Shown here: positions 888 to 64,000 of the stretch, piece by piece
How the letters are laid out: each line of letters starts with the position of its first letter
Numbering within the stretch: position 1 is the stretch's first letter
Assembly: GCA_965652295.1 (NCBI GenBank)
Contig: CBFGTS010000003.1
Coordinates: forward strand, 128,001 to 192,000
Length of the DNA stretch: 64,000 bases
Origin: an uncultured Haloferula sp.
GTDB lineage: Bacteria > Verrucomicrobiota > Verrucomicrobiia > Verrucomicrobiales > Akkermansiaceae
Direction: 5' to 3'
Translations under genes and position numbers: made by a program
Notes under the pieces: model-generated
Database searches by the model: none
What the model was told of the DNA's origin: nothing
What the model saw: only the letters and a program-made list of their open reading frames with translations

Positions 888-944
888 TGCCACCGGGGGG
901 ACTCGAACCCCCACGCCGGTTGCCCGGCAGCGGATTTTAAGTCT
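888..944 (-). tRNA. 3' half of tRNA-Leu(TAA); att-site duplication, not an intact tRNA
   Basis: Minus strand reads GACTTAAAATCCGCTGCCGGGCAACCGGCGTGGGGGTTCGAGTCCCCCCGGTGGCA: TAA anticodon loop, long variable arm, T-arm GTTCGAGT and 3' acceptor strand. There is no D-arm or 5' acceptor strand (GCCACCG) upstream. Confidence 0.88.
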
Positions 945-1095
945 GTAGTGCTTCCGGGCTCTCCACTGGTGTTCAATGCCTTACATTCCGCAAATTCTGC
1001 CACTTCCGGTATTTCTCAGAAAATAAGGGCAATTCGGGCAGGAAACCTCCCAAGTTGGTGTTGCTAAATCCGCAGCGCCGGCTTGAGCTTGGGCT

Positions 1096-2289
1096 ATGGC
1101 AAGGAGGCCGAGTTTCAAGGTGCGCAAAACAGCCCACGGGTGGACCATCAACGTACCGTCGGGTCTTTCCGGGTCTGGAAAACGGGAACGACACTTCCAT
1201 GAAACCAAGGAGAAAGCCACGGCCCATGCCAGCCGTCTTCGCGACCAGTACAGAAGCTTCGGGGAAGCATCGGCCACCATTCGCCCAAGCCTTGCCGAGG
1301 CTGCAACAAGCGCCGAAAAAATCCTGGAGCCGTGGGGCATCTCCCTCGTTGAGGCCGCTAGGATGGTGGCCCGCCTCAAGGAGGCTGAGGCCACAAGCAA
1401 AGTCCTGGAGGAAGCGGTCGATGCATGGCTACTAGCCTGCGAAGGATTGCGGCCCAGAACACTGGATGGCTACCGCCAGACAGCTCGCCTTCTGAAGACC
1501 CACCTCGCGGGCAAGGTCCTTACCTCCATCACGTCTGATCACCTTCAGGATGCTGTCGCCCCCTTGGGGTCAACCGGTGCCGCTACACGCGGGCGAATCA
1601 GAAACTCCAAGGCCTTCTGGAGATGGGCCGCGAAGAAAGGCTGGTGCGACATCAAGGTTTTCGACGGCGTCGAGACACCAAAAAGCGGCCGGGACCATGG
1701 CGAGATCGCCATTCTGACCCCGACGACCGCCGCGCACCTTTTAGCCACAGTAGAAGCTTACTACCCGGCCGCGGTGGCGTCGTACGCACTTCAGCTCTTT
1801 GCGGGCATCCGCACCGAGGAATTGCGCCGCCTCGAAACCCAACATGTATCCCCCGAGGGAATTGAGCTCCCAGCCGAAGTGACGAAGAGAGGCCGAAGGC
1901 GGCACATCACACCAAGCCCCACTTTGAAGGCGTGGCTGGTTGAATACCCGTTCCAACCATGCGCCAATTGGAGGGAGGTCGACAAAGCCTGCCGTCGACT
2001 TTCCGGATGGGACCTTGGTTCCCGATTACTGGAAGCTCGGGACGACTTTGAAATGCTGCCCAAGCCGACCTTGGGAAAATGGCCACAGAACGCCCTCCGG
2101 CACTCGCATGCTTCTTACGCGGTTGCGGTCGGCGTTCCGCTGGAGAGCCTTCTATTCGAGTTCGGCCACGCTGGCTCACCGGCAGTCCTTCGTGAGCACT
2201 ACGTGGGACGGGCCAGTCGGAAGGAAGCCATCGCCTTCTTCGCAATCGGCCCGAACGGCTCTGCCATCCAAAGCGTGGTAGCAGCCTGA
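1096..2289 (+). CDS. Tyrosine recombinase/integrase
   Basis: Catalytic motifs FAGIRTEEL (R), TKRG (K), NALRHSHASY and FGH...EHY; adjacent to the tRNA fragment. Confidence 0.93.
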   Translation: MARRPSFKVRKTAHGWTINVPSGLSGSGKRERHFHETKEKATAHASRLRDQYRSFGEASATIRPSLAEAATSAEKILEPWGISLVEAARMVARLKEAEATSKVLEEAVDAWLLACEGLRPRTLDGYRQTARLLKTHLAGKVLTSITSDHLQDAVAPLGSTGAATRGRIRNSKAFWRWAAKKGWCDIKVFDGVETPKSGRDHGEIAILTPTTAAHLLATVEAYYPAAVASYALQLFAGIRTEELRRLETQHVSPEGIELPAEVTKRGRRRHITPSPTLKAWLVEYPFQPCANWREVDKACRRLSGWDLGSRLLEARDDFEMLPKPTLGKWPQNALRHSHASYAVAVGVPLESLLFEFGHAGSPAVLREHYVGRASRKEAIAFFAIGPNGSAIQSVVAA

Positions 2290-2833
2290 GCCTTCACGAA
2301 GCCCTCAGCCTTCACGCCAGCTCCGCAACGGAGGGTCCCGGCCATCGCACTTCAGCGAACAGCCGCTTCAACACCAAGCAACACGCGGATTCTGCCTCTG
2401 ATTCCTTCCACACCTTCCAGATTCGGTCTGTGCTGGGCGTCACGATCGCACATGGGGCCGTCAACCACTATGGCTCAGTCGTTGAAGCAGTGGGCGGTGG
2501 AGGCCACCACTAGCCTCAGTTTCTCGCGGCGTAGAAAGAAGTCCGGCTAATTACTCCCGCCCCTCCCACAGCACCTCCCTCTTGAAGAGCATTCGAGTGG
2601 GCCACGGTAGTGCCTGGAAATCGTCGCCCACGACGGCCCTGCGGAGAACTGACCACGCCGGACCATCCACCCGGTGCTTCCGGCAGCGCAGATAGCGCTG
2701 GTTCTGCTTGCCTCCTTACTACGTGAAAACTGCGCACCACCCCGTGAAGTTTCCAGCCCGGTTGCTGCCGCTTCCCGCCCTTGCGGCCTTCGCTCATTCT
2801 AGCTAGATCCATGGTGAACCCGGCCTTCTACCC

Positions 2834-3697
2834 TTGCCCGACCGCGTCCTCCTCACCTTCACCGGCCTCCACGATCCCTTCGTTCCCACCGCGACCGAGG
2901 GGGTCGTGGAAGCTGGCCCCGTCCTCACGGTTGTCGCCGAGCGTCCGTTCGAGGCCATCTACTTGTTCTCCACCCCCAAGACATCCGAGATCAGCGTCGA
3001 GACAAAGAAGGCCATTCAGGAGAAACACAAGGGCACCAAGGTCGAGATCCTGGACGTCCCGCTGAAGGATCCGACCAACTACCTCGGGATCCTCCGGCAG
3101 CTCCGGAAACACTTCCGCGCGATCCAGCGCCGCCATCCGGACGCCGCGTTCTCCATCTCGGTCTCGTCCGGCACCCCCCACATGCACGCCTCGTGGGTAC
3201 TGCTGACAGCGTCCGGCGAAATCCCGGCAACACTCCTCCAGTCCACCGCCCGTCAGTTCGTCCCCGTGGGAAAATCCCAGGTGCGGGAAATCGACATTCT
3301 GGCGGAGGATTTCCCTCGCATCACCCGGACCCTCGGTAGCCAAGCGCCAGATACTGACGAGGAAGCGGAAATCGCCGCCCTCTGCCACCAGGAGGGCATC
3401 ATCGGCTCGGATCCCGGCTTCCTGCGAGCCCTCCGGGAGGCCTACCTCTTCGGCCAGTATGACGATACCCACGTCCTCCTCCTCGGGGAAACCGGCAGCA
3501 GCGGATCCATGAAGGACATCGGAAAGGTGAAGATGTTGGAAGTCCCGACCCCCCTGCCGCCGATAGACCTTCAAAATCGCTTCGCTGCCCTCGCAAACAA
3601 GATTCAGGGAGAAATCGCAAACGCAACCACTTCATTGGAAGAAGCAGAAAGCCTCTTTACCTCCCTCCAACAACGCGCCTTCCGGGGCGAACTCTAG
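2834..3697 (+). pseudogene. Chimeric ORF: RtcR-like N-domain plus start of a sigma54 AAA domain, fused to a type I RM HsdS C-terminus
   Basis: TFTGLHDP...SSGTPHM (RtcR/CARF-like), then IIGSD...VLLLGETGS (Walker A cut before GK), then SGSMKDIGK...PLPPIDLQNRFA...LFTSLQQRAFRGEL (HsdS tail). Confidence 0.8.
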
Positions 3698-3720
3698 CAA
3701 GCCATCAACACACAATTACC

Positions 3721-4983
3721 ATGTCAGATCTGGCTCAAGAACTCGATACGTTGTCCGACTCGTGGTCACACGCGCTGACGGTGCTCAAAGGGAACCCCGA
3801 CATTGTGCAAGCGGTAGTGCCTGGGGTGAGCATCGAACAGGTTGATGACACCGTCAAAACGCTGATCCACTGGGCATCCAAAGTGAGAGCCCCACACGGA
3901 TTTCGACCAATTTATCCGATTATCAAGCTTCAGCTTTCAGCTTCTGTGAAGAAGCTGGCTCAACAGGCACAGAACCTGAAAGGCGATCCAACGACTCATT
4001 TCCCGGCTTTCGTTGCACAGCTAGTCCAATGCTTTGCTCCCATTACCGCTGCGTGCACCTTTTCGGAAAAAGCTGAGGCACACAGGATGGTCGCCGATCT
4101 GGGTGGCGAGCTTGGGCAGCATATAGCCTTGATGACGACCGCCCAGAAGGAACTGGACGAAAAAATGGCGCTTCTTGGGAAATCTCAGGAGACCGCGGAC
4201 GAGATTTCCGATCAGGCGGAACAAGCACAGGCTGACGCAACGAAAATCCAGACATTCGTCACTTCACTAGAGGGTCAATCTACAACCGCTGCGTCCCATC
4301 TGGAATCCATTGAATCGGCAAATACCGAGATTGAGGCAGCGAAAACAAGGACAGCGGCCTTGGAAAAGCAGAATGAAACCCTCCAAACCAAGCTTCAGGA
4401 TCAATCGAAGCGTTTGCAGGACCTTATCGAAAAAACAGCCGCTCAACAAAAACTGATCGATGATTTGCTCCCGCGAGGGACCAGCGCAGGTCTGGCTGCT
4501 GCATTCAATCAGCAGCGAATCCGCTTTGGCCGTTCGCAAGCAGGATGGGCTGTCACCTTTCTCATCAGTGTCGGCATGCTGATCACCTTCGCTTGGCACA
4601 TCAAAGCCGGCCTGCCGTCCACCAGCTCATCTGATGTGTGGGCCTATTTGCTGTATCGAATACCGCTGGCTTCTCCAATGATTTGGTTAGGCTGGTTCAG
4701 CGCAATCCAATATGGCAATGTTCTGCGTCTGAAAGAGGACTATGCCTTCAAGGAAGCAACTTCCATGGCGTTTGCCGGTTATCGTGATCATATGGACCAC
4801 CTAGGAGGTCTCGCCGAGCCCGACGGCACTACTGCCCTGAACAAGCTGGCACTAGTAACAATCACCATCCTTGGAAGCGATCCACTCCGTCTTCTCCAAG
4901 GCCAATCGTCAGACGTTTCGCCGCTCGACAAGATTTCTGCTCTTCTGAATGGCACGAAGTCTCAGAAAGATACGAAGGAATAG
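3721..4983 (+). CDS. Coiled-coil protein with C-terminal membrane anchor, of a type common in defence islands
   Basis: 420 aa; long Q/E/K heptad region, two TM helices, then LRLKEDYAFKEATSMAFAGY. Confidence 0.8.
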   Translation: MSDLAQELDTLSDSWSHALTVLKGNPDIVQAVVPGVSIEQVDDTVKTLIHWASKVRAPHGFRPIYPIIKLQLSASVKKLAQQAQNLKGDPTTHFPAFVAQLVQCFAPITAACTFSEKAEAHRMVADLGGELGQHIALMTTAQKELDEKMALLGKSQETADEISDQAEQAQADATKIQTFVTSLEGQSTTAASHLESIESANTEIEAAKTRTAALEKQNETLQTKLQDQSKRLQDLIEKTAAQQKLIDDLLPRGTSAGLAAAFNQQRIRFGRSQAGWAVTFLISVGMLITFAWHIKAGLPSTSSSDVWAYLLYRIPLASPMIWLGWFSAIQYGNVLRLKEDYAFKEATSMAFAGYRDHMDHLGGLAEPDGTTALNKLALVTITILGSDPLRLLQGQSSDVSPLDKISALLNGTKSQKDTKE

Positions 4984-5117
4984 CTCCCTATCACGCTTGA
5001 AGCACAAGACTGAGTTCCGCGTCTCCAACGAATTTTCCGAAGCATAACCACTTATCGAAAAACAGGCTCCGACTGTCCCGCGTGCCGGCAATACCCTGAT
5101 TATTCCAAATCGACCGT

Positions 5118-5561
5118 ATGCATCAATCCCTCCCCAATATTGACTTTGCTTCCATTCGCCCACTTCGCGGGAAGCAGACGGACGGCTTCGAAGAGCTGTC
5201 CGTCCAGCTGTTCCACGGCGAAACCGAAGGCCACGGGGAGTTCTTCGCCATCGAGGGATCTGGCGGCGACGGAGGAGTCGAGGCCTACCGCACACGCGCG
5301 GATGACACCAAGGTGGCCGTCCAGTCCAAGTATTTCGACCAGCTCGGCACCGCCCAATGGAACCAGATCACCAAATCCGTTAAGTCCGCGCTTGAGAATC
5401 ATCCCACGCTCCGCGCCTACATCGTCTCGACCCCGCTGAATCGGACTCCCGCCCAGACGGAGAAGTGGAAGGCCCTCACCGCCGAGTGGCCCGCTTGGTC
5501 AGCGTCTTCGTCGGACCGTCAGCGGCAAACCAAGAAAACCCAGTGCTATGGTGGTCGTTGA
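5118..5561 (+). pseudogene. Truncated N-terminal restriction-endonuclease-like domain of a larger NTPase (NACHT/Avs-like) gene
   Basis: FEELSVQLF...GSGGDGGVEAY...VQSKYF (D...QxK nuclease signature). Plausible coding sequence stops near 5490, where the convergent PEP-CTERM gene ends. Confidence 0.65.
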
Positions 5562-6128
5562 AATCTCTGGAACGACGGCAATCGTGCCGGCCCATGGTCC
5601 TAAAACCACCAGCCCTGCTTGAGGCAGCTTTGCCGGGAGGGAAAGCAGGTTCTCCCCGTCCGATAGCAAAACCGCCGCCAACTCAGGGTCATTCAATGCT
5701 GCCTCATACACCTCGTAGGTGATGAAGGCAGGAATCCCAATCGGAGGCCACAAGACATCGGTATCAGGATCGAAACTCACGAAGCCATCCGCGGGAGTTG
5801 AGAGCCAAGGGTTGGCCGGAATAGGCGAGAGGGTAGGAAGCTCGATGAATTCCGAGAACGCCAGCGAGATGGCGATGTCATCGCCCGACATCGTCGAGAT
5901 CAGCTCAAGCTCGGAAGAAGCGGAGCATCCCTTCGGTATCCACACCGAGTAGCTCACGCTATCCCCGTCGACGTGAAAAAATGCCGCGGCGTTGACCATC
6001 CATCGTTCTTTTCCATCAGAGGTGGAATACTCGAAGGGCATCTTGAGCCGTGCCTCAAGAATCGTCGCCGCTTGTAGCGAAAGCGCTTGGGCCAAAAGCC
6101 AGACTGCAATTCCGATACTCCGAAACAT
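5499..6128 (-). CDS. PEP-CTERM sorted surface protein
   Basis: Signal peptide from ATG 6128 (MFRSIGIAVWLLAQALSLQA); C-terminus VVPEISTTTIALGFLGLPLTVRRRR. Confidence 0.8.
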   Translation of the reverse strand: MFRSIGIAVWLLAQALSLQAATILEARLKMPFEYSTSDGKERWMVNAAAFFHVDGDSVSYSVWIPKGCSASSELELISTMSGDDIAISLAFSEFIELPTLSPIPANPWLSTPADGFVSFDPDTDVLWPPIGIPAFITYEVYEAALNDPELAAVLLSDGENLLSLPAKLPQAGLVVLGPWAGTIAVVPEISTTTIALGFLGLPLTVRRRR

Positions 6129-6189
6129 GCCGAAGTAGGCGACCTCAGTGTGAAAACTGCAAACACGAAGTGAATACCTGAGGCCGGGA

Positions 6190-6620
6190 TTAAAATCCAC
6201 CGATCCGCTCCGACTCGACGTCGGACTCCCCCAGATCTGCATCGGCCACCTCATCGGCTGTGATCGCCCCGCTCATCCGCGCCCCGCAGGCGATGCAGCC
6301 AAGGATCCCATCGCCCCGGTCGGGGCTCTTCAGCCCTTCCTTTCGCATCTTCTCCTTGTCCTCCACGCGAAGCCGCCCTTTGACGTCCCATTCGCTTCGG
6401 CGCGTCGTGAGCTGCCGTGACGTGATCGGATCGATGACCCGAGGTGGATCCGGCCGCGCTCGATCTCCCTGACCCCGACGTGCCAGACCTCGGCGATCAG
6501 GTTGGCGTATTCCTCGGGCTCGCTCGATGGGTGCCACCATGGAAGCGATTGATCCGCCAACCCAGCTCGGCGAGCATGTCGATGAAGACGGTCCCGAGCC
6601 CGTCCTCACCGATCTTTGAT
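6190..6620 (-). pseudogene. Phage terminase large subunit C-terminal remnant, frameshifted
   Basis: Three frames join: GEDGLGTVFIDMLAELGWRINRFHGG / EEYANLIAEVW...IHL / QLTTRR...GRLRVEDKEKMRKEGLKSPDRGD. Confidence 0.75.
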
Positions 6621-7158
6621 CAGTCGGCCGCTGGCAAGAATCTCAACGAGCGAGAGATGTTTGCCGTCCAGAGGACCGTGAGGTCATGAGTCTTCCGGTA
6701 GCCGACCACCGAGAAGAGGTGCCGCCGCGGTTCGGAGGAAATAGTCCAGAACGACGCTCACGAAACGGCGTCCATCTCCCCCTCCGAAAGCTCGAATCCC
6801 ATCCACATTCCCCAAAGTTTTTGGCGTCCCCCCTTACGTAACTCATTGATAATCGACCTCGGAATTTCATTTTGGCGTACTGTTTTCGGAAAAAGTGTCC
6901 CAAAATAGCGCGCCACTACCCCTTGATTATCAAAGAATTGAACAATCCGACATAGCGCCAGAATGAAAAAATAGTTTGTCCAAGTGTAATGTAGGCCCTT
7001 TCTGGCGCTCCAAACGGTCCGTTTCTTAGGTCCTGCGGCACGTGAAGGGGACGCTGAAATTCCCTGCTTCAGGGGGGCATCGAAAGAAGAGCCGAGGGGC
7101 AACTCAGGCAGTCCGACCGGAGGCCGACGAAAATCGGAATCGGTGCATTCCGCCGCTT

Positions 7159-8448
7159 CTACGCCACTTCATCCTGTACCCCCGCATTCAGCTGTTTCAA
7201 ACCGTCCTGAATGAGCAGCAGGATCAGAACCCATCCGACGATTCCTAGAATCAAGCCCTTCAGATAATATTCCCACGGAGTTCCCACCAAGGGAACCACC
7301 AATGGGCTATTCCAAAGAGCGTGAAGACCTACGACGAAGAGAAAAACCCGGAGGAACCGAGAATCCAGCAGCATTGAGAAGGCGAAGGCTTTCTTACCCA
7401 TGACCCGCCACAGCGCGGCCCCCGTTGCCGCCGTCCAGATCACGTGTGCGAAGGGAGACAGGAATGCCCTTTCCACCTGTATGCTCGTCCCCGAATACCC
7501 ACCGGCATCAAATCGCAGCGTGTAACCGACCGTCTCGAACGCGGAGAATCCTGCACCGACTGCCGCACCCATCAACATCCCGTTGATGCTCCAGTGGAGG
7601 TGCTTCCAGTGGTGGGCGAAAAACACCAACGCGAGCACCTTTCCCAACTCTTCAATCGGCCCCGCCGCCATCACCCCGAACCATGTAAGCAGCCCAGTCG
7701 CTTCGAATAGAAAGAGGCTTGCAATCATGGAAATGAGACCTCCTCCGATAAACAGCAAAATCACCCGGGTGAGGCTGACGTTTCTCGCCACGTTGACCTC
7801 GAAGAAGAAGATAAGGACTGAAAATGGAACCGCGATCGCTCCAGTCATCAGCCAGCCCGGGTAGAGGTTCAGATTGTCAAACCGCACCAAAGCCCAAAAG
7901 AAGCCGCCTGCCGCAAGGAGCGAGAGGATCAAGAGACGCAGAAAGATCCACGGGCTAGGCCAGGCCACGCCTACTTCCTCCGGTGAGGGCGTCGTGGCCG
8001 AAGTGCCTGCCGCGAAAAGATCCTCGATCTCCTGAAGGGACCCTTTGCGGAACATCCCCGTAAACAGATTTTTGAGAGACTGGTCTTCGAGGCCCTCCAG
8101 TCCTGAGACCTTCGTGACCCCTCCTATCATGCCAGTCCATGCCGTTTTTCCAGTGTTGCCGGTTCGAGCCGTGTGCGGCGATTTCACCCGGAGTTTCAGA
8201 GGCGCGGCGGGTAGGCCCTCTGGGAGAGGGAGCCACGTTTCAGTTCCCTCCGCAGCGATTCGGGTGCTGTCTCCTAAAATCCCGCAAGCATGCAGCTCCC
8301 GAAGAGTTCCAGCAGAGACCGGACCGTGAACGTTCTCGTCGTCCGAGGTGTAGAACCACCGAGGCTCCAATGGGGGCGGCTGGCTTGAGATCGCGGCACC
8401 TGGGGCAAACGTCGCCGGGGAAGCGACCGATTCAGAAATCTCACTCAC
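7159..8448 (-). CDS. PrsW-family intramembrane glutamic protease with N-terminal GYF_2-like domain
   Basis: WFY...HGPVS..TLREL (GYF_2); GPIEELGK, GFSAFETVGY, FAHVIWT and LHALWN (PrsW). Confidence 0.88.
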   Translation of the reverse strand: MSEISESVASPATFAPGAAISSQPPPLEPRWFYTSDDENVHGPVSAGTLRELHACGILGDSTRIAAEGTETWLPLPEGLPAAPLKLRVKSPHTARTGNTGKTAWTGMIGGVTKVSGLEGLEDQSLKNLFTGMFRKGSLQEIEDLFAAGTSATTPSPEEVGVAWPSPWIFLRLLILSLLAAGGFFWALVRFDNLNLYPGWLMTGAIAVPFSVLIFFFEVNVARNVSLTRVILLFIGGGLISMIASLFLFEATGLLTWFGVMAAGPIEELGKVLALVFFAHHWKHLHWSINGMLMGAAVGAGFSAFETVGYTLRFDAGGYSGTSIQVERAFLSPFAHVIWTAATGAALWRVMGKKAFAFSMLLDSRFLRVFLFVVGLHALWNSPLVVPLVGTPWEYYLKGLILGIVGWVLILLLIQDGLKQLNAGVQDEVA

Positions 8449-8519
8449 GCCAGCGAGCCAACACTACCGTGGGTGAGGTGTAAAGAATCTGCGTTCGTCA
8501 CTACGGTCGAGGTTCATTG

Positions 8520-8750
8520 ATGGAAAAACCGACGGTCGATGCCCTGTACCAGCGTCTTCGCGAGCTGCGCCAGCAACGCGGTTGGACGCAGGAGCAGTTC
8601 GCAGAGGCCTCCGGCATTTCCTACAAATACTACCAAGCGGTCGAAGCTGGACGTAAGCGCGACCTCCGCCTTTCGACCCTGATCCGTTTGGCGAAGGCCC
8701 ATGATCTGGCGGTGTGGGAGCTCCTGCGGTTTCCGGAAGCTGATCGCTAG
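8520..8750 (+). CDS. XRE-family HTH regulator
   Basis: LRELRQQRGWTQEQFAEASGISYKYYQAVEAG. Confidence 0.88.
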   Translation: MEKPTVDALYQRLRELRQQRGWTQEQFAEASGISYKYYQAVEAGRKRDLRLSTLIRLAKAHDLAVWELLRFPEADR

Positions 8751-9122: not shown

Positions 9123-10562
9123 TTGAAGACCTCGCTTATCACCTTAGCCTACTTTGCCTTCGCCTTGGTGGCAGCGAAGGGACAGCACGTGCCCGTGACC
9201 GCTCCGTCCGAATCGGGAGACGCTCCGCTTCAGGGTGAAGAGGTAGCCATCCTTACCGACGCTCCGAATGTTCCTCCTCCCATCACCCGCGATCACCCGA
9301 GCAAGGTGAAGGTGGAGCTTGAAGTCACCGAGGTGGTTAAGCGCATGGCCGATGGCGTCGATTACACCTTTTGGACGTTCGGCGGCAGCGTGCCAGGCAA
9401 GTTCATCCGCGTACGCCAGAACGACGAGGTCGACTTCACGCTCAAAAACCATCCGTCGAGCAAGATGCCGCATAACATCGACCTCCACGCGGTGACGGGG
9501 CCGGGCGGCGGTGCGAAGGCGACCTTCACCGCACCGGGCTACCAAACGAACTTCTCGTTCAAGGCCGTCAACCCCGGTCTCTACGTCTACCACTGCGCGA
9601 CCGCACCTGTCGGCATGCACATCGCCAACGGGATGTATGGCCTGATCCTCGTCGAACCGAAGGAAGGCCTCCCGCCCATCGACAAGGAGTTCTACGTCGT
9701 CCAAGGCGACTTCTACACCACCGGGAAGTATGGCGAGCGTGGCTTGCAGGGCTTCAGCATGGAAAAGGCCCTTGAGGAGAACCCCGACTATGTGGTTTTC
9801 AACGGCGCGGTCGGCTCCCTTACCGGCGAAAAGGCGCTCAAGGCCTCGAAGGGTGAAACCGTCCGCCTCTACGTCGGGAACGGCGGCCCCAACCTCGTCT
9901 CGTCGTTTCACGTCATCGGCGAAATCTTCGACCGCGTCTACACCGAGGGGGGCAGCCGCGTGCAGGAGAACGTCCAGACGACTCTCATTCCGGCCGGGGG
10001 CGCTACGATCTGTGAATTCAAGCTGGAGACGACGGGTGACTTCATCCTGGTGGATCACTCGATCTTCCGCGCCTTTAACAAGGGGGCGTTGGGCATCCTT
10101 GATGTCAGCGGAGATCCGGACCTGGCAGTGTTCTCGGGACAGAAGAAGGACGAGGTTTACCTTCCAGAAGGCGGAGTGGTGCAGACGATCCCCAGCCACG
10201 GCGAAGCAGCGCCCGCCGCCGCTACCACGGACGAACGCACCGCGGCCGGGAAGATCATTTACGATGCCAACTGTGCGGCCTGCCACCTGCCTACCGGTAC
10301 CGGCGTTCCGAACGCTTTCCCGCCGCTGGCGAAGTCGGATTTCCTCAACGCGGATGTCGACCGCGCCATCGGAGTCGTGCTCAACGGCCTGGAGGGTGAA
10401 GTCACCGTCAACGGCGCGACCTACAACAGCATCATGCCCAAGCTCGGCCTCGATGACGAAGCCGTCGCCAACGTCCTGACCTACGTTTACTCGGAGTGGG
10501 AGAACTCGGGCAAGGAAGTCACCCCGGACCAAGTGGCCAAGGTGCGTGCCGCCCATCCCTGA
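9123..10562 (+). CDS. nirK: Copper-containing nitrite reductase with fused C-terminal cytochrome c
   Basis: [30 protein letters not shown] and VDHS copper motifs; C-terminal CAACH. TTG start at 9123 is inferred because it precedes a signal peptide. Confidence 0.95.
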
Positions 10563-10578
10563 GCCTCACTGCCCAACC

Positions 10579-11987: not shown

Positions 11988-11989
11988 GC

Positions 11990-50787: not shown

Positions 50788-50882
50788 GTTTTCCTATTTT
50801 AGCCACACGTCTCGACCCGGCAATGTTTCACTCCTTCCGCGAAGGGATTGTTCTCCCAACCTCCTTTGACTCCACTCGTCCC

Positions 50883-52571: not shown

Positions 52572-52588
52572 ACCCAAGCTCCACGCCC

Positions 52589-52738: not shown

Positions 52739-52752
52739 GCCCTCTCTGATCC

Positions 52753-52959: not shown

Positions 52960-53055
52960 GGTTCTGCTCTCCCACACCCCCTGCGTCACGATGAAGCCCG
53001 GCAACGCGCCGGGCTTCGTCGTTTCCAACCCCTCAACTCCCAACCCCATCCCCCT

Positions 53056-54380: not shown

Positions 54381-54453
54381 CTCTCCATCCCGGCGGGTGC
54401 TTGCGCTCCCGCCGGGACCTGGAGATGGCAGACCTTTTCCCATATCCTGCGGG

Positions 54454-54483
54454 AAGGGCGACTCCACGACTGGGGTCGCCCTT
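54454..54483 (+). repeat. Hairpin leader, copy 1
   Basis: AAGGGCGACTCC-ACGACT-GGGGTCGCCCTT, followed by cctccaaaccaa. Confidence 0.7.
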
Positions 54484-54518
54484 TTCGCGTCCTCCAAACC
54501 AACAACCAGCCAACCATC

Positions 54519-55535: not shown

Positions 55536-55783
55536 AGTGGCGCACGCCGAAACGTAAAGGGGAGGGGGCTTGGGAAACACTACTTCACCAAGCCCCATCC
55601 CCCCCGGCGGCGGGACCTCACCGCCGCCAGCCCCTCCCGATCCGTTGACATCCCCTCCCGACATCACTGCCTCTGCCCCAATCTGCCTGAATTGAAACCC
55701 TCCTCCTACCTCCTCCGCCTACTACCTCTCCGAAAGCCAAGACCCTCCCTCGAAGCCACTCTCCCCCAACTCCCCCCAACCCC

Positions 55784-55823
55784 GCACCAAGGGCGGCTCC
55801 ATTCACGGAGCCGCCCTTGGTGC
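55784..55823 (+). repeat. Hairpin leader, copy 2
   Basis: GCACCAAGGGCGGCTCC-ATTCAC-GGAGCCGCCCTTGGTGC, followed by cctccaaaccaa. Confidence 0.7.
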
Positions 55824-55857
55824 ATCCACCTCCAAACCAATCCTCATTCCCATCAAT

Positions 55858-56247
55858 ATGTCCCATTTCACCACTATCCAAACCGCCATCCGCGATCTTG
55901 ATGCCCTTCACGACGCGTGTGCTGAACTTGACGTCGAACTCCGCCTCGACACGCCGTGCCGGGGCTATGGAAGCATCATGCGTGAGGCCCACCGCACGAT
56001 CGTGCTCAAGGGGCCTTACGACATCGCCGTCGATCCAACCGGGGAAGGCAGCGATGCCTTCGGCCTCACTACCGACTGGTGGGGCGGTCACGTCGCCCGG
56101 GAGGTGGGGGCCGGCTACGGTCGGCTCCTCCAGTGCTACGGCGTCCACAAGACGATGCGCGAGGCCCGCCACCGCGGACTGCGCACCACACGGTGTGCCC
56201 AGGCTGACGGCTCCATTCTCCTCATTTTGGAAGGAGGGGCGCTGTGA
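55858..56247 (+). CDS. DUF1257 (Ycf35-like) protein
   Basis: MSHFTTIQT.I.D...L..A, D.W, L.Q.Y and DGSI.L.L. Confidence 0.85.
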   Translation: MSHFTTIQTAIRDLDALHDACAELDVELRLDTPCRGYGSIMREAHRTIVLKGPYDIAVDPTGEGSDAFGLTTDWWGGHVAREVGAGYGRLLQCYGVHKTMREARHRGLRTTRCAQADGSILLILEGGAL

Positions 56248-56450
56248 GCCGCAGCATCCACGTCCGCGTTTCGCCCAGCGGTGACATCGCCGTCGAGGCC
56301 TTTGGCTTTCAGGGCAAGGGTTGCGAAGACGCCACCCGGGCGATCGAGCAGGCTCTCGGTCAAAGCACGGGACGACGCTTCAAGCCGGAGCACCGGCAAT
56401 CCATGAGCGTTGTCCATCAGCTGGCTCTTGGAAAAGGGGGTGATGCATGA
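56244..56450 (+). CDS. DUF2997 protein
   Basis: G.I.VEA.GF.G..C..AT..IE.ALG...KPE. Confidence 0.85.
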   Translation: MSRSIHVRVSPSGDIAVEAFGFQGKGCEDATRAIEQALGQSTGRRFKPEHRQSMSVVHQLALGKGGDA

Positions 56451-56710
56451 CCACCGCCACCCTCCGCATTGACCTCCAAGGCTGCATCGATTGCCTCTAC
56501 ACCGAGGCGATCGACCTGCGCTCCTTGGGCAAGCTTGAAGTCACCCGTGCCACCGAGATCGTCTTCCATCCCGACCAACAAGCTTGGGAGGTCCGCTCGG
56601 TGTCGTCCGATGATGTCCTGTTTGCCGCTCCTTCCCGTGAGGCTTGCCTTCAGTGGGAAAGGGAAAACATGCAGCCCGGGGTCACTCCCCCTGCCGAAGC
56701 ACCAGCCTGA
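56447..56710 (+). CDS. Hypothetical protein coupled to DUF2997
   Basis: LYTEAIDL..LG.L.V.RA, R..CL.WE; ATGA overlap. Confidence 0.75.
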   Translation: MTTATLRIDLQGCIDCLYTEAIDLRSLGKLEVTRATEIVFHPDQQAWEVRSVSSDDVLFAAPSREACLQWERENMQPGVTPPAEAPA

Positions 56711-56951
56711 TCTGTGCGGCGGGAAATCCGCCCAGCAGCTCGTCCATGGAGCATTTCAGCACCTTTGCCAGGATCACCACCTCGGCGTCGGTCACCCGGC
56801 GCAGGCCGGATTCGATCTTGGCGAAGGTGCCGCGGCTCACATCCCAACCCGCCACCTGACAGCGTCCGGCAATGCTCTCCTGGGACAGCCCCGCTTCCAA
56901 GCGGAGTTTCCTCACCCGGGGTCCAACGAGATTCTGCCGTGCGCTTGCCAT
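56682..56951 (-). CDS. XRE-family HTH regulator
   Basis: NLVGPRVRKLR...LSQE..A...SRGTFAKIE.G.R.V.D.E. Confidence 0.85.
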   Translation of the reverse strand: MASARQNLVGPRVRKLRLEAGLSQESIAGRCQVAGWDVSRGTFAKIESGLRRVTDAEVVILAKVLKCSMDELLGGFPAAQIRLVLRQGE

Positions 56952-57060
56952 TGCTCCGATTGCGGAGCTTGACCCTACCTCCAACAATTGCCTCTATTGC
57001 TCCACTGTCGGAGCAATCGGCAGCCTTCCAAACCCCTTCCAACCCCCACCTCCAATCACG

Positions 57061-57420
57061 ATGAAACCAACTCTATGGGTGGTCCTGCTCGTTGCGGGAT
57101 TGCTCACCGCCTGTGGTCCCAGCGAAAGCGACCTCCGCACGGAACTCAGGGAGATCGAAAGCGAAATGCTCGCGATCGAACTCGCCACCCGGGATCACAT
57201 GGCCCGGATGGACCAGGCCGCGATCAGCGCCGCAGCCGGCAGTTTCAACGCTGGATATGGCCTCACCGCAGGCGACTACGATACCGTCGGCGAAGGCATC
57301 GACGTCGCTGTCGAAGCCACCCGCCGCTACGACGTGTCCGCCTATTCCATCGAACAACTGCGCACCCGCTTCCAAAAGCTGGACGCACGCAAACAGGAAA
57401 TCCTCGATGCTCTCCAATAA
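57061..57420 (+). CDS. Lipoprotein of unknown function
   Basis: MKPTLWVVLLVAGLLTAC lipobox. Confidence 0.75.
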   Translation: MKPTLWVVLLVAGLLTACGPSESDLRTELREIESEMLAIELATRDHMARMDQAAISAAAGSFNAGYGLTAGDYDTVGEGIDVAVEATRRYDVSAYSIEQLRTRFQKLDARKQEILDALQ

Positions 57421-57904
57421 ACAGAAGCTGCTCATTGCAGCGAAAATCAACGCGTTTACCCACCGGATGAGATCGCATCCCAATCGCTATGTCTGCGGGC
57501 TGTTCGTGGCCGTGGTGGTGGTCTTCCTCAGCTACGAAAAGTGGGCCGAGTACCAGGATTCCAAGCCCGATCCACTCAAAGAGGCCTACGCCAAGCAACA
57601 AGCTGAAGCCGAAGCGAAACGGAGACGGCAGCGGGTATATCCGGCCTACACGCCCCAGAACAGGAAAGCCATCGAAGAGTTCGACGGCCTGTTCTACGTC
57701 GCCTCGCAGATTCATTCCGATGGAGACCTTTCCGGACTGGTCGTGCGGTTACTTTCCACGGTTCCGAACGTGAACTGGTACCCCTGTAGCCCGGACCTAA
57801 GAGGAGCTGCAGCTGACATCGAGTCGATCAAAAGCGGAGACCCTCCAGACGAGGTCACCGCGAAGATCCAGACCTTTGTCGATGTCTGCAATCGCTACCG
57901 ATAG
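57407..57904 (+). CDS. Hypothetical single-TM protein
   Basis: Starts at ATG 57407, overlapping the upstream gene end; one TM helix. Confidence 0.6.
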   Translation: MLSNKQKLLIAAKINAFTHRMRSHPNRYVCGLFVAVVVVFLSYEKWAEYQDSKPDPLKEAYAKQQAEAEAKRRRQRVYPAYTPQNRKAIEEFDGLFYVASQIHSDGDLSGLVVRLLSTVPNVNWYPCSPDLRGAAADIESIKSGDPPDEVTAKIQTFVDVCNRYR

Positions 57905-58015
57905 CCTCGAATCCCCAAGGCTTCCTCCGCCCCCAGAGACCGCGGTTTCCCACGAAAGGCACCAAATCCCGAAGACCCGGGAGGGCAAAAATCCCATCTA
58001 CTTCACCCGCGTCCG

Positions 58016-58354
58016 ATGAAAAATCTTCAACGCCTCAAGCTTGCAGCTCTGCTCGCTGCCATCGCCGTCCTGTCCCTCCCTGCCGTTGCAGAACCTAGCG
58101 TTCACAAGGCAAACATCGAAGTCGCCGCCGGGCTTCCAAACAGGATGGCCTCGACCCACGTCCTCGCCGCCCGGGTCGAGCTGTTCCACAAGGACCAGCT
58201 CGGCCACTGGGTAAAGGTCAGGAGCTTCATTCGCTACGATTCTTTCGTCGGGCTCGTAACGGCCTTCGACCAGCGATCCCGGAAGGAGATTGAATACCAT
58301 CAAGGCGATTGGCGGGTTGAATGGGCACGGACCATTCACACCGAACGTGACTGA
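58016..58354 (+). CDS. Secreted hypothetical protein
   Basis: Signal peptide MKNLQRLKLAALLAAIAVLSLPAVA. Confidence 0.65.
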   Translation: MKNLQRLKLAALLAAIAVLSLPAVAEPSVHKANIEVAAGLPNRMASTHVLAARVELFHKDQLGHWVKVRSFIRYDSFVGLVTAFDQRSRKEIEYHQGDWRVEWARTIHTERD

Positions 58355-58468
58355 CTCCGATCCCCTACGCTTCCCCCTCCCCCCAGAGACCCCGGTTCCC
58401 AGCGTGGAACCGGGGTCTTCTGTTTTCACCCCCAACCTCACTTCAACCGCAACACCGCAATCTCCATC

Positions 58469-59998
58469 ATGAACCACACCCCCATCACCACCTACCTCCG
58501 CGCCGGCTACCCCGGCCTCATCCTGGTGACGTCCGAGGAGGCGCGCGCCGAGGCCGAAGTCGCCTCGGTCTGTGTCGAGCTCGACCGTCACCTCCATGCC
58601 TGGTCGTCAACCGACGGCCTCGTTGACATCGGAGCGTCCCACGCCACTCCTTGTGCTGATCCGCTGGAAGCCCTCCAACTTGTCGAGGATCTCTTCTCAG
58701 CGCGGGACACCCGACATGTCGTGCTGATGCGCGACCTTCAGCCCTATTTCGACCAGCAGGATCCGCAGCTCGTCCGCCGGCTCAAAGACCTCCTTCGCGC
58801 CGCCAAGACCACGGGTCATGCGCTCATCCTGACCGGTTGCCGATCGAAGCTGCCACCCGAACTCGAACACGAGCTCACCCGGGTCGAGCTGGCACTGCCG
58901 GATGCCGGCCAGCTTGCTGCCGTTCTCGACGGCATCCTGGCCTCCAGCGATCATCCGATATCCGATCCCACCGCACGGGAAGCGATCCTGCAAGCCGCCC
59001 TCGGGTTGACGACGATTGAAGCGGAGAATGTCTTCGCTCTGTCGATGGTCGAAACCGGACACATCGATCCAGAAGTGGTCGCGCGCGAAAAGGCCAGCCG
59101 TCTGAAAAGCGGCGGCCTCGTCGAAGTCATCGAGGCAGGCATCGGGCTCGGCGACATCGGCGGTCTCGACGAATTGAAACGATGGCTTTCCGGGCGGCGG
59201 CGCGCCTTCGGCACGACCGCCCGAAGCTACGGCCTTCCGGCCCCGAAGGGGCTGCTCATCGTCGGCATCCCCGGCACCGGCAAGAGCCTTACCGCCAAGG
59301 CTGCTGCCAGCGCTCTCCAGCTCCCGTTGCTCCGCCTCGACATGGGGCGGGTCTTTGGCGGCATCGTCGGTCAGAGCGAGGCCAACCTGCGTACGGTCAT
59401 TCACACCACTGAGGCGATCGCCCCGTGCGTGCTGTGGATTGATGAAATCGAAAAAGGATTCGCGGGTAGCAGCAACAGCGGCAGTACCGATGGCGGCACT
59501 TCCTCCCGTGTCTTCGGCTCGTTCCTGAGCTGGATGCAGGAAAAGGAGAAGCCGGTGTTCGTGGTCGCAACCGCCAACGATGTTTCCCAGCTGCCACCGG
59601 AGTTTCTGCGCAAGGGCCGGTTCGACGAGATCTTCTTCGTGGACCTCCCGGATGCAAAAGAGCGCGCGAACATCTGGGACATCGTCATCGCCCGACATGG
59701 CAGATGTCCGACGGACTTCGATCCTGTCGTCCTGGCTGGTGCGGGAGAGTCCTTCACCGGAGCGGAAATCGAAGCCGCATTCGTGGACGCGCTTCACGAG
59801 GCCTTCGCCGAAGATCGCGAACCGACCATGGCCGACATCGGTGAAGCCATCGGCCGCATCGTCCCGCTGGCGCAGCTCATGGACGGACGGATCGCCGCGC
59901 TCCGCCACTGGGCGACGGGACGTGCTCGTGAAGCGGGCACGCGCGAGATCCAATCAACGGGGAAGCGAAGTTCGCGGCGAGTCACTCCCATGAACTAA
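58469..59998 (+). CDS. Ycf46-like AAA+ ATPase
   Basis: Degenerate N-terminal AAA domain, IGGL..LK.WL, GIPGTGKS, WIDEIEK, ATAN and RKGRFDEIFFVDLP. Confidence 0.92.
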   Translation: MNHTPITTYLRAGYPGLILVTSEEARAEAEVASVCVELDRHLHAWSSTDGLVDIGASHATPCADPLEALQLVEDLFSARDTRHVVLMRDLQPYFDQQDPQLVRRLKDLLRAAKTTGHALILTGCRSKLPPELEHELTRVELALPDAGQLAAVLDGILASSDHPISDPTAREAILQAALGLTTIEAENVFALSMVETGHIDPEVVAREKASRLKSGGLVEVIEAGIGLGDIGGLDELKRWLSGRRRAFGTTARSYGLPAPKGLLIVGIPGTGKSLTAKAAASALQLPLLRLDMGRVFGGIVGQSEANLRTVIHTTEAIAPCVLWIDEIEKGFAGSSNSGSTDGGTSSRVFGSFLSWMQEKEKPVFVVATANDVSQLPPEFLRKGRFDEIFFVDLPDAKERANIWDIVIARHGRCPTDFDPVVLAGAGESFTGAEIEAAFVDALHEAFAEDREPTMADIGEAIGRIVPLAQLMDGRIAALRHWATGRAREAGTREIQSTGKRSSRRVTPMN

Positions 59999-60408
59999 CG
60001 GACGCATGACAGCCCTCCAATACTTGTGTGGCGAAAGCCACACCCGTCCCGACGAATGGGAAGAGCAAGATGGTCCGGACTCGGGCGTGGGAGTGGATCA
60101 CTGATTCCACCATCCAGACTTGGGCCTCTGGTACGTCTGCACCGATCAGGGTGTCTTGAGCGCGTCCCCAATCGAAGAGCAGCCGTGAGTCAGCTCAGGT
60201 GCCACCCCTCCGGTTGCGCTACGACTTCCTCCACTCCCTTGAACAGCCCGCTGAACGGCTGCCCCCTTTCAGCCCACGCGTTCCGGGCACTTGCGAACCG
60301 CTCCAGTTCGCCGGGGCCACCCCCCTCCGCTTCGCGGGGGGCGGCCCACCTCCTTCCTCTCTCACTGCCGTTCTCTGGCAGCGCTCCACCCCAACAACCA
60401 ATACCCCC

Positions 60409-61461
60409 ATGATAACCACACTGCATTACCGCCAAGGTTCCTCTGACAAAGTCTACCAAGTCTCCATCGACCCGGCGGACGATGGCTTCCTCGTGAACTT
60501 CGCGTATGGACGCCGTGGAGCCACGTTCAGCACTGGCTCCAAGACTCCGGCTCCCGTTTCCCGGGAAGAGGCCCAACGCCTCCACGACCGCCTTGTCGCC
60601 TCCAAGACGGCCAAGGGTTACGTCCTCACCACCGACGGCACGCCCTACAGCGGCACCGACCACGAGAGCCGCCACATCGGGATCCAGTGCCAGCTCCTCA
60701 ACCCTGTGGAGGAATCGGAAGCCTTCGATCTGCTCCGGGATCATCGTCATGTCCTTCAGGAAAAGTTCGATGGTCGCCGGTTGCTGGTTCGCCGGCAGGA
60801 TGGCGAGGTCATCGGCATCAACCGGCGCGGCCTTCAAGTGGGCCTCCCCGAACCCATCGCCAACGCCGCGAAGGATCTGCCGCTCGATTGCCTCATCGAC
60901 GGTGAGGCCATCGGCGACACCCTCCACGCCTTCGATCTGCTCGAACTGAAAGGGATTGATTTGCGTGATCGTGGCTATCTCTACCGTTTGGCGGGGCTGT
61001 TGCGATTGCTCGATCCCGGGTCCGCCATCCGCCCGGTATCCACCGTCATCGACCCTGCCGACAAGGAGGCGACGTTCCAGACGCTCCGGATCACCGGGGC
61101 AGAAGGCGTCGTGTTCAAAGACGGGGACGCACCCTACACTCCAGGTCGCCCGGCTTCCGGCGGCACTCAGCTGAAGTTCAAATTCGTGGCGAGCGCATCG
61201 TTCATCGTCTCGGCCATCAACGCCCGCCGAAGCGTGGCCCTCGCGCTCTTCGATGAGTCCATCAAGGTCCCGGCAGGCAATGTCACGATTCCCCCCAACC
61301 ATGACCTGCCATCCGCCGGGTGCGTCGTGGAGGTCCGTTACCTGTACGCCTATCGGGAAAGCGGCCGCATCTACCAGCCGGTCTACCTCGGCCGGCGGGA
61401 CGACATCCCCGTGGAGGCATGCACCGTCACGCAGCTGAAGTTCAAACCAGTGCCCTATTGA
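60409..61461 (+). CDS. WGR domain plus ATP-dependent DNA ligase
   Basis: SDKVY...YGRRG...K..KGY (WGR); QEKFDG, IDGE, FDLL, EGVVFK and KFK (ligase); OB-fold VEVRY. Confidence 0.88.
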   Translation: MITTLHYRQGSSDKVYQVSIDPADDGFLVNFAYGRRGATFSTGSKTPAPVSREEAQRLHDRLVASKTAKGYVLTTDGTPYSGTDHESRHIGIQCQLLNPVEESEAFDLLRDHRHVLQEKFDGRRLLVRRQDGEVIGINRRGLQVGLPEPIANAAKDLPLDCLIDGEAIGDTLHAFDLLELKGIDLRDRGYLYRLAGLLRLLDPGSAIRPVSTVIDPADKEATFQTLRITGAEGVVFKDGDAPYTPGRPASGGTQLKFKFVASASFIVSAINARRSVALALFDESIKVPAGNVTIPPNHDLPSAGCVVEVRYLYAYRESGRIYQPVYLGRRDDIPVEACTVTQLKFKPVPY

Positions 61462-62308: not shown

Positions 62309-62460
62309 AGCTGAAATGTGAGAGCGGGCGAAACGATTCCCGGTTTCGCCCGGTTTCCAAAGTGGTCCGGGTACCACAGAAAGTTCCCAGCCCGAGCCGG
62401 ATGCCCGAACTGGGATTGCTACGTAATGGCCCCGGCCGGAGTGGCAGGGGCGACTCAAAG

Positions 62461-62530
62461 ACGCTTCGTCAGCTCCTCACGGAACTGACTAGGCAGAAAC
62501 CCGGCGGGCACGTCTCCGCGCACCGGGCTT
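62461..62530 (-). ncRNA. Group II intron domains V and VI
   Basis: 34-nt DV AAGCCCGGTGCGCG-GAGA-CGTGCCCGCCGGGTTT with an AGC triad, followed by the hairpin GTCAGTTCC-GTGA-GGAGCTGAC. Confidence 0.8.
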
Positions 62531-62546
62531 GCTGGAAGCCATCCCG

Positions 62547-64000
62547 TCAGTGAGCGGTCGACAGGTCGACCACCCCGGTGACCGGAGGGCTGTGAGACAT
62601 TGAGCAATGATTGTGGACGACGACGGACTGCCGTTGACCCTCAGGAGTGAGGGTTCGGCACGCATCCGTGAGCAGGATCGGTCCCTCACAGTACGCACAG
62701 TGCCCCTTCTGGCGCCGAAATGCGGCCGCTTCGATGTTTAGGGGAGTCGCGTAGTAGCGGCTCCGTCTGAGGCGGAGCTGCCAGTACGGCCAGTCACTAT
62801 CGTAGTAGGACTTCCCTGGCTGAACGAGGATCTGTTTGGAGATCCCGGTGTCTGCGAGTCTCTTCAGGGTGGGGCCATTCTTCACGAACGGCGACGTGAA
62901 CGCCCAGTCGCGATTCCGCGGCGTCCCGTCCTTCCGTTTCAACGGATTTCCGTTGTGGTCCAGCTCGATCCCGCTGAAGAGACGCTTCTTGATCCATCCC
63001 GCGGACTTGTCGGAGAATCGGCGCTTTGCCCACCCTCTCAACTTCGTGTGGATCTTGTGATCCATCCGGGAGAAGGTCTCCGTGGCGTTGCTGTAGCGAT
63101 AATAGTTCGCCCAACCGCTGATCATCCGATTGAGGTGGACGATCATGATCGAGATCGGGTCCTTCCTCCCCGACTTCATCCGATGTTGTCTTGCCCCCCG
63201 GCTCTTCCGGGAGAGCTTGAGCCGGTCTGCGTAGTCGGCGATGTCGCGGTAGAACCGCTTCTCGGCGGCCTTGCTAGGCCGCACGATGAGGTATGGCCTC
63301 TTGGTTCCTCCAAATTCGGTCGTCTCATGATGCTGGAGGTGGAAGCCCAGAAAGTCGAAGCCTGCGTGGGCCTCGTTCCCGGTGCGGTCCATCGTGTGGA
63401 CGATCTTGGTTTTCTGAAGGCTCAGTCTCAGCCCGAGCCCGGCCAGGTATTCGCCAATCGCCGTCGCGCTCCACTCGACAACCGCGTGGTCGGAGTGCGC
63501 TACGACCAGGTCGTCCGCGTAGATACTGATCGCCGGCTCGCCGAGCTTCGTCACCCGTCCGCGGAACTCCTTTCGGAACTCCTGGTGTAGGTGGGGCTCA
63601 AGGCTTGCCAAGGCGACGTTCGCCAGCAGAGGCGAAAGAGGTCCGCCTTGTGGCGTCCCCTTCATCGTGGGCTCAAAGGCCACCTCACTGAGCGCTCCGG
63701 CCTTGAGGATTCTCCTCAAGGAGAGCGTGATAAGAGGTAGTCGGCTTGTCCTGCGCAGCAACTCGTCGTGATCGAGATGGTCAAAGAACTTCTCGATATC
63801 CGCATCCAGAACCCATTCAGGTCCCGTTTTTCGGAAGTGACGCTGTAGATAGCCGATCGCATCATGGGTCCCCCGGCCCTTGCGGAATCCGTATTGCCTC
63901 GGCGAGAAGCGCGCTTCCCACTCGGGCTCCAGCGCCAACGCGATTAGGGCCTGATGGGCCCTGTCGATGAGATTAGGAATACCTAGGGGGCGCTTCTCCG
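62547..64000 (-). CDS. ltrA: Group II intron reverse transcriptase/maturase; 5' end outside the window
   Basis: KRPLGIP..DRA.Q, LEPEWEA.F, YGFR.GR, DIEKFFD, GTPQGGPLSPLLAN, YADD, GFDFLGF and X domain GWANYY. Confidence 0.93.
   Translation of the reverse strand, partial: EKRPLGIPNLIDRAHQALIALALEPEWEARFSPRQYGFRKGRGTHDAIGYLQRHFRKTGPEWVLDADIEKFFDHLDHDELLRRTSRLPLITLSLRRILKAGALSEVAFEPTMKGTPQGGPLSPLLANVALASLEPHLHQEFRKEFRGRVTKLGEPAISIYADDLVVAHSDHAVVEWSATAIGEYLAGLGLRLSLQKTKIVHTMDRTGNEAHAGFDFLGFHLQHHETTEFGGTKRPYLIVRPSKAAEKRFYRDIADYADRLKLSRKSRGARQHRMKSGRKDPISIMIVHLNRMISGWANYYRYSNATETFSRMDHKIHTKLRGWAKRRFSDKSAGWIKKRLFSGIELDHNGNPLKRKDGTPRNRDWAFTSPFVKNGPTLKRLADTGISKQILVQPGKSYYDSDWPYWQLRLRRSRYYATPLNIEAAAFRRQKGHCAYCEGPILLTDACRTLTPEGQRQSVVVHNHCSMSHSPPVTGVVDLSTAH

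Follow-up and report, generated by a model that had tools for sequence, protein, structure and literature searches.

Genes with a predicted role in reducing nitrate to N2O are carried on a genomic island in an uncultured Haloferula sp. of the family Akkermansiaceae (Verrucomicrobiota). The window analyzed here (i.e., the whole 64,000-nucleotide stretch, positions 128001 to 192000 of contig C3 in a 4.37-Mb genome that is 98% complete) contains all but the right end of this island, which is 65.9 kb long and bounded by a perfect 56-bp repeat of part of a tRNA-Leu(TAA) gene. Its features are listed below from left to right, in window positions unless prefixed with C3; genomes, contigs, loci, and sequencing runs are denoted by G, C, L, and X numbers, respectively, with the host as G000.

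888..943, minus strand: core of the left attachment site (att), 56 bp; displaced tRNA-Leu(TAA) fragment, reaching from the anticodon arm to the 3' end
1096..2289, plus strand: tyrosine integrase, 397 aa; match to phrog_1 (E 3e-20)
2834..8750: variable region with a CARF/RtcR-like open reading frame (ORF), a coiled-coil ORF, fragments, a PrsW-like protease, and an XRE regulator
9123..16867: nirK module, with a NirK-cytochrome c fusion, FGE-like protein, SCO, an AhbD/AhbC-like radical S-adenosylmethionine (SAM) pair, NnrS, a CopD-like protein, and RIC
17022..20027, plus strand: NrdJ, class II (B12-dependent) ribonucleotide reductase; match over the family cut-off
22145..27864, plus strand: cNOR operon, with diheme NorC, NorB, NorQ, NorD, NorE, a NorF-like protein, and a small membrane ORF
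28197..36321: gdhA, NsrR-like Rrf2, ptsI-like gene, DUF488, HxlR, thioredoxin-like protein, DUF5698, GreA-like protein, and MOSC
36440..37960: heme A synthase (CtaA/COX15) and a truncated globin
37957..45698: nap module, with napD-like gene, napA, tetraheme napB-like gene, and ferredoxin on the minus strand, and tetraheme cytochrome c, NrfC-like, NrfD-like, and Rrf2 genes divergently on the plus strand
46031..52067: GST-like protein, MarR, ClC channel, CPA2 antiporter, and Cys/Met PLP enzyme
52568..61461, plus strand: backbone, with a small membrane ORF, 167-aa ORF, PD-(D/E)XK exonuclease, DUF3150, DUF1257, 87-aa ORF, XRE (minus strand), other ORFs, AAA ATPase, and WGR-domain ATP-dependent ligase
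62547..64000, minus strand: group II intron-type reverse transcriptase/maturase, with its start outside the window (C3:192328)
C3:193160-193441, minus strand: HTH_17 excisionase-like ORF, common to the sibling island at the same tRNA in G041
C3:193725-194654, plus strand: 309-aa ORF, common to the same sibling; the right att lies beyond it
C3:194769-194853, minus strand: intact tRNA-Leu(TAA), containing the right att

The repeat at 888-943 recurs at C3:194769-194824 (window-equivalent 66769-66824), giving a spacing of 65,881 bp. The right tRNA-Leu(TAA) scores 59.5 bits with Rfam and folds into a cloverleaf (z -3.4). In the left copy, the 5' half is foreign and no cloverleaf forms (z -0.9); ARAGORN called it and Rfam did not. 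The complete tRNA that ARAGORN placed at 889-972 is a chimeric half, ruled out by Rfam, the fold, and the foreign 5' half. A preliminary description of the window, made from the letters alone, had placed a tRNA-Leu 3' half at 888-944 beside an integrase and predicted a second copy within an intact minus-strand tRNA-Leu beyond position 64000; both were found, with the repeat corrected to the 56 bp given above. The integrase ORF starts 150 bp inward of the left repeat, its frame is intact, and the catalytic-motif residues (R, NxxR, H, and Y) are present as read by eye. All 18 homologue loci of this integrase in other genomes adjoin a tRNA 3' fragment whose start lies within the anticodon arm or just upstream of it, and the three nearest homologues (62-66%) are all at tRNA-Leu(TAA). 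The island was thus likely inserted at this tRNA by its own integrase, which would recombine at the anticodon arm and restore the tRNA, and the excisionase-like gene would permit excision. A second host tyrosine integrase (G000:C7:102420-103298) is 56% identical to one of a sibling island in G244.

The cargo spans 9.0-52.1 kb (43.1 kb). Its reported content (i.e., about 43 kb with nap, nirK, cNOR, maturation genes, RIC, NrdJ, and two Rrf2 regulators) was confirmed by family matches, and mobile backbone genes do bracket it, with the integrase at the left and the conserved backbone at 52.6-61.5 kb. NirK scores 365 bits against TIGR02376 (cut-off, 296); a promoter scan upstream of nirK found nothing. 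A short NorB, a heme c NorC, NorQ, and NorD are encoded in a single operon, as expected of cNOR; the NorB label is based on a COX1 match, length, motifs, and context, and no NorB-specific model matched. The tentative Nap assignment draws on an RR motif and a NapB Pfam match, in addition to NapA itself, and napD was labeled from its position and size. From these matches, the predicted function of the island nap, nirK, and cNOR genes is the conversion of nitrate to N2O. NapC and NapGH were not found in the nap module, and the cytochrome c/NrfC/NrfD unit is likely to be the quinol-oxidizing partner that replaces them. The NapB-like protein is tetraheme and membrane anchored, and the pairing of Nap with cytochrome c/NrfC/NrfD is kept in G007, G043, and G044; this pairing is possibly an uncommon variant of electron supply. 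Many other cargo genes have no clear link to nitrogen oxide respiration (gdhA, ptsI, ClC, CPA2, metB-like, and others). The host also carries an NrdD-like gene (161 versus 326 bits, below the cut-off) that adjoins an NrdG-like ORF, and it is therefore doubtful that NrdJ is the only anaerobic reductase of the host.

The last step of denitrification is encoded elsewhere in the genome. The host has a clade II NosZ outside the island (TIGR04246, 824 bits versus a cut-off of 625) with adjoining nosD and ABC genes, and moaA lies on C2, also outside the island; Mo-cofactor synthesis and N2O reduction would accordingly fall to the host. Paralogues of the radical SAM pair, nnrS, ric, and rrf2 occur outside the island, where we found no second nirK catalytic domain and no norB, and where the best other NapA-like match is 30% identical. 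Since nosZ is resident, the island and the chromosomal NosZ together likely make the host a complete denitrifier. The distribution of these genes in congeners is patchy: among 34 genomes, nirK was detected in 15, napA in 3, and this norB and clade II nosZ in 1 each, and no congener had napA, nirK, norB, and nosZ together (Nar and qNOR lay outside the search). These counts speak against a syntenic nir/nor/nap core in relatives, the case named beforehand as refuting a mobile origin. The sole congener sharing clade II nosZ, G021, has no napA, norB, or nirK. Judged by flank DNA, it is also the nearest of the relatives searched (73% over 9.2 kb), has the same tRNA and the same right flank, and carries zero element genes in the 40 kb beyond that tRNA; G001 and G004 likewise have none beyond the tRNA (20 kb each). 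The simplest reading is that the ancestor had only nosZ and that the island brought in the upper pathway. The nos cluster itself (G000:C13:61300-69600; L093) includes a cupredoxin, a CusF-SCO fusion, and ric and Rrf2 paralogues of island genes.

Taken together, we favor, with a probability of about 0.72, a 65.9-kb island that was inserted at tRNA-Leu(TAA) by its integrase, carries nap, nirK, and cNOR for a predicted conversion of nitrate to N2O, and with the host NosZ would yield a complete denitrifier. Several results weigh against this. No exact empty site was found, because the left flank of G021 is nonorthologous; the proposed comparison with relatives thus upheld the absence of the element beyond the tRNA and did not deliver the empty site. 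NapA, at 886 bits, falls just under the NCBIfam cut-off of 904, though this is its best family by far. No attP/attB junction was found in six sequencing runs, in which contigs break at the repeat and X16 and X18 give thin cover. The host also has neither the Rep_trans-like gene nor the paired genes of about 470 aa that several siblings carry, and the strain contrast described below weakens when all pieces are counted.

The history of the cargo bears on how much of it arrived at once. We found the nirK module without nearby backbone genes in six genomes, five of them congeners and the sixth from elsewhere in the order, and the nap module stands alone in G007, G043, and G044. In G046, the order nirK-nrdJ-nor-ctaA-GST-MarR-CPA2-metB is kept at 72-88% DNA identity to the island cargo; the block at 28197..36321 is missing there, no backbone matched, and the G046 block lies 356 bp from a displaced tRNA-Leu(CAG) 3' part. 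Fourfold-site identity between the island and G046 ranges from 0.39 to 0.81 along the cargo and is highest in norQ/D/E (0.77-0.81), compared with 0.37-0.59 in core flank genes (six scored; two others gave no alignment). NorB is 98% identical to that of G046, which could be taken for very recent transfer; its fourfold-site identity is 0.61 and NorB is 91-94% identical in other genera, and that explanation was rejected. By these comparisons, the cargo reads as a mosaic of modules present separately in relatives. The spread of identities, with norQ/D/E above the core flank genes, suggests that cargo parts were likely exchanged after the species split, neither recently nor as one block. Separate nirK, nor, and nap modules would have been joined by recombination, perhaps aided by the backbone exonuclease and ligase. 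Of the earlier view that nitrogen oxide respiration is packaged here as one mobile unit, the single att-bounded island stands; as the modules are separate in relatives, transfer of the whole kit between species goes beyond what the data support. The nirK modules of G001 (C9), G018 (C234), and G033 (C1) lie within a few kilobases of a tRNA gene or tRNA-like match.

The same data would fit a single arrival followed by immobility, with the denitrification modules accumulating in place at a tRNA hotspot without ever having traveled together. This scenario, which we consider unlikely, is consistent with the separate modules and uneven identities above, with a cargo G+C content (0.624) near that of the host (0.635), with gene fragments at 5.1-7.1 kb, and with the loss of the Rep_trans-like module, where a group II intron-type reverse transcriptase now stands. 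The perfect repeat and the intact integrase frame argue against it. So does the G046 nirK-nor block beside a displaced tRNA-Leu(CAG) 3' part, which indicates repeated travel in islands. Strain variation points the same way. Eight runs from four studies, one of which may be the study behind this genome, contain at least half of the left 6 kb, and no RNA run carrying the region was listed. In one of them, X3, the left flank shows 25 differing sites and 4 gaps in 917 bases, and the right end of the element differs at 2 of 4,827 bases versus 19 of 8,191 in the core flank (P = 0.011); with all listed pieces included, the element differs at 13 of 12,571 bases (P = 0.029). The lower divergence of the element suggests, modestly, that it is younger than the divergence of the strains. 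Over its whole length, the island has a slightly lower G+C content than the genome (0.617 versus 0.635).

The backbone places the island, which we read as integrase inserted, in a wider family. The DUF3150 backbone gene turned up first in 8 of 24 congeners and later in 13 of 30; across the Akkermansiaceae, 38 of 300 genomes had it, with up to six copies each. Gene order is largely retained among the mapped copies, some of which are truncated, and a tRNA gene or fragment was read by eye in 12 of 20 upstream regions. The cargo of five scanned siblings (thresholds, 1e-8 and 1e-40; ORFs of at least 130-150 aa) comprises BREX, GmrSD and type I restriction, catabolic, Pst/arsenic, and Czc/Cop genes, with no conjugation or virion families among the matches. 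Judged from these sequences, the set of exonuclease, DUF3150, DUF1257, AAA ATPase, and ligase marks a family of islands that use many tRNAs and whose cargo is unrelated from one to the next. Haloferula and Luteolibacter supply the nearest named homologues of the backbone, in agreement with the verrucomicrobial host that had been guessed from the letters. The vehicle is thus common in the family, with defense, metal, and phosphate cargo elsewhere and no known transfer genes. In the literature searched, outside which most subscription journals lay, we found no mobile-element description for DUF3150/DUF1257 or DUF2997/ycf46, none for denitrification combined with an island or integrase, and none for Haloferula or Luteolibacter combined with an island. 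CATASP, a name considered as a candidate, is unrelated.

No relaxase, coupling protein, or type IV secretion genes were found among the element ORFs (68 and 71 scanned), which rules out an integrative and conjugative element and answers the suggestion to look for relaxase and secretion genes: the island is not conjugative by its own genes. Beside the integrase or excisionase of several siblings, among them the one in G041 that shares this tRNA, lie a Rep_trans-like gene and either one or two genes of about 470 aa. The Rep_trans family includes MOBT relaxases. The Rep_trans-like sibling protein matches PF02486 (E 1.3e-4), and its top fold matches are the rolling-circle initiators 4cwc, 4cwe, and 4cij, in a modest model (mean predicted local distance difference test, pLDDT, of 61; template modeling, TM, scores of 0.21-0.34); a profile search of this protein and the paired proteins against PDB sequences returned nothing. 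A relaxase sought in the host genome with the sibling Rep_trans-like profile was not found, although a very divergent one among other ORFs is possible. In our island, the reverse transcriptase follows the excisionase-like gene at the position where siblings carry the Rep_trans-like module. Because these genes are missing, this copy may not replicate or be nicked unaided and may depend on functions supplied in trans or be stranded; with no excision junction either, its present-day mobility is inferred only. It would need a helper to move.

A conjugative helper is one candidate. Under this explanation, the island would be an integrative mobilizable element whose origin of transfer (oriT) is nicked by a sibling-supplied Rep_trans/MOBT-like protein, with the similar sizes of siblings caused in some other way. 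The Rep_trans-like gene beside the integrase or excisionase of siblings fits this explanation, and DUF3150 was found in conjugative plasmids in 792 of 820 matching records. One such region, on an MOBH/MPF_F plasmid (NZ_CP014052.1), has the order ssb-bet-exo-AAA-DUF3150-VWA-radC; as in the island, its DUF3150 (26% identity) is accompanied by genes for an exonuclease and an AAA ATPase. The island differs from it in having no recognized Bet, SSB, VWA, RadC, or tra genes, with DUF1257 and the WGR-domain ligase instead; we take the plasmid region to carry the IncC/SXT label, and the two AAA ATPases presumably belong to different subfamilies. Islands with only an oriT are reported to be common (bioRxiv 10.64898/2026.01.13.699239). 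In the host genome, however, no match was found to PF02534, PF03135, or PF19044 (VirD4, VirB4, and TraG type; the VirB4 control was positive in just one genome out of 14), a Rep_trans-like gene is missing throughout, the fold model of the sibling protein is modest, and conjugation offers no obvious cause for similar sizes. We therefore regard conjugative mobilization as improbable, to about the same degree as the immobile scenario.

Links to phages are also evident in the backbone. Three of its proteins, the exonuclease, AAA ATPase, and ligase, have matches among phage families (AAA, phrog_8638 at 4e-132), clusters of DUF3150 look-alikes are 72-81% viral, and the DUF3150 fold matches only uncharacterized phage proteins, with no PDB match. 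The 167-aa ORF occurs in two proviruses of 36-38 kb with a terminase, in one of them next to the exonuclease. These matches would suit a prophage that has decayed, with metabolic cargo in place of its virion genes. Against such an origin, no terminase, capsid, or primase-helicase gene was found in the element (the excisionase-like ORF has a weak HTH match to a small-terminase family, E 4e-4), and no terminase lies within any sibling checked. The same virion-free layout recurs across genera; no close DUF3150 relative was found in viral contigs or phage records, and of 39 viral loci, only 6 have DUF3150 near the AAA homologue. A prophage origin is thus the least probable of the explanations considered, and very unlikely. 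L255 (G321; 72.7 kb, classed as a provirus) has an integrase and the pair of 167-aa ORF and exonuclease with no phrog_2 terminase match, and may be a distant family member.

Returning to an inserted island in need of a helper, the sizes of siblings suggest a route. Of 22 copies attempted, 12 were delimited (41.9, 59.5, 63.8, 64.2, 65.0, 65.9, 66.0, 67.6, 70.0, 71.7, 73.3, and 103.9 kb) and 10 were not. Ten of the 12 are 59-73 kb long, and of the nine found without a size-directed window, seven fall within 63.8-73.3 kb. Simulations gave P values of 5e-6 to 2e-3 for nine delimited copies, under arbitrary broad nulls and with undelimited copies dropped. Since sizes cluster near 66 kb regardless of cargo, packaging of the excised island in the capsid of a helper phage is the likeliest transfer route, at somewhat less than even odds. 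The counterevidence is considerable: predicted windows of 60-72 kb held a second att in two of seven cases and none in five, three scans of at least 80 kb found no second att, two copies were cut off by the end of a contig (in one case 65.0 kb from the att), two delimited copies lie far outside the cluster, two are known only from predicted windows, and related copies in the set do not count as independent. We identified no helper phage, and the best terminase match in the host is weak (E 2.9e-5). A strict 66-kb rule is unsupported, with only two of seven predicted windows matching; the cluster merits a test but is not firm enough to prove packaging. More doubtful is the combined proposal that these undescribed Akkermansiaceae islands are held near 66 kb by a helper-phage capsid and that this copy confers the whole nitrate-to-N2O pathway in one step. 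If the size cluster does reflect capsid packaging, it would represent a major way for genes to move, so far undescribed, in a phylum with poorly known mobile elements; with a helper capsid, the islands would be cargo shuttles of fixed capacity that could turn an N2O consumer into a complete denitrifier in one step.

Mobile denitrification and helper-phage transfer of islands are each already known, the former in Thermus and the latter in Pseudomonas. In Thermus thermophilus, the NCE and nic clusters likewise confer a nitrate-to-N2O respiration that was gained horizontally and includes an NsrR-type regulator; there, the enzymes are Nar and NirS, encoded on a megaplasmid in separate clusters of 30 kb and 7 kb (PMC5748679). 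The Haloferula island instead combines Nap, NirK, and cNOR in one att-bounded chromosomal island that complements a resident clade II nosZ, and none of the Thermus markers (narCGHJIKT, dnrST, nrc, and nirS) was found among its ORFs. Exonucleases, of which YqaJ is one, enter the comparison with the I55-like islands of Pseudomonas. Those islands are transduced by jumbo phages and share with ours a tyrosine integrase, direct repeats, the lack of autonomous transfer genes, a variable cargo that is often defensive, and an exonuclease (YqaJ) among the recurrent genes (PMC12595487). They insert at tmRNA, with AlpA, RadC, and inovirus Gp2-like genes and sizes from <20 to >70 kb (PMC12595487), whereas the Akkermansiaceae islands occupy many tRNAs, share a DUF3150/DUF1257/AAA/ligase core, and cluster near 66 kb; the element here is at tRNA-Leu, with no RadC or AlpA family match. 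The tycheposons of Prochlorococcus, for which spread by vesicles or capsids was proposed, likewise integrate at tRNAs with no conjugation machinery and carry nutrient cargo including nitrate assimilation (bioRxiv 10.1101/2020.12.28.424599). Their primase/helicase hallmark was not found here with Pfam and PHROGs, and the backbone and phylum differ. Two features are new: Nap, NirK, and cNOR together on one island that completes the pathway of a clade II nosZ host, and a vehicle whose size may be limited. Complete denitrifiers make up only 26% of clade II nosZ genomes and partial denitrifiers dominate (PMC12569097). The island would represent a one-event switch from an N2O sink only to a full denitrifier, which is testable in culture.

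Several further observations concern the left and right ends of the island and its siblings. In the variable region, PrsW and XRE recur in sibling elements, the tail of the CARF/RtcR-like ORF (2834-3697) changes character past a Walker A-like start, and a short ORF (5118-5561) looks truncated; both ORFs are probable remnants of earlier defense cargo. A variant contig in run X3 has indels at 2646-2677. At the reverse transcriptase/maturase, no Rfam intron match was found; a hairpin past its stop codon (window 62440-64000 and beyond) resembles domain V by eye, and matches to this protein lie within or close to siblings in G206 and G244. Two members stand in tandem at one tRNA-Tyr in G206 (C1:495910-625499; 59.5 and 70.0 kb), with backbones oppositely oriented. 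In G244 (C7:206377-206414; L150), a lone tRNA-Met 5' half lies beside a backbone, unlike the usual displaced 3' half; an integrase is about 71 kb off, and a matching 3' half was not found. In the sibling of G016, a uracil-DNA glycosylase domain is fused to a phage-like DNA polymerase adjoining the integrase (L061:17237-19549).

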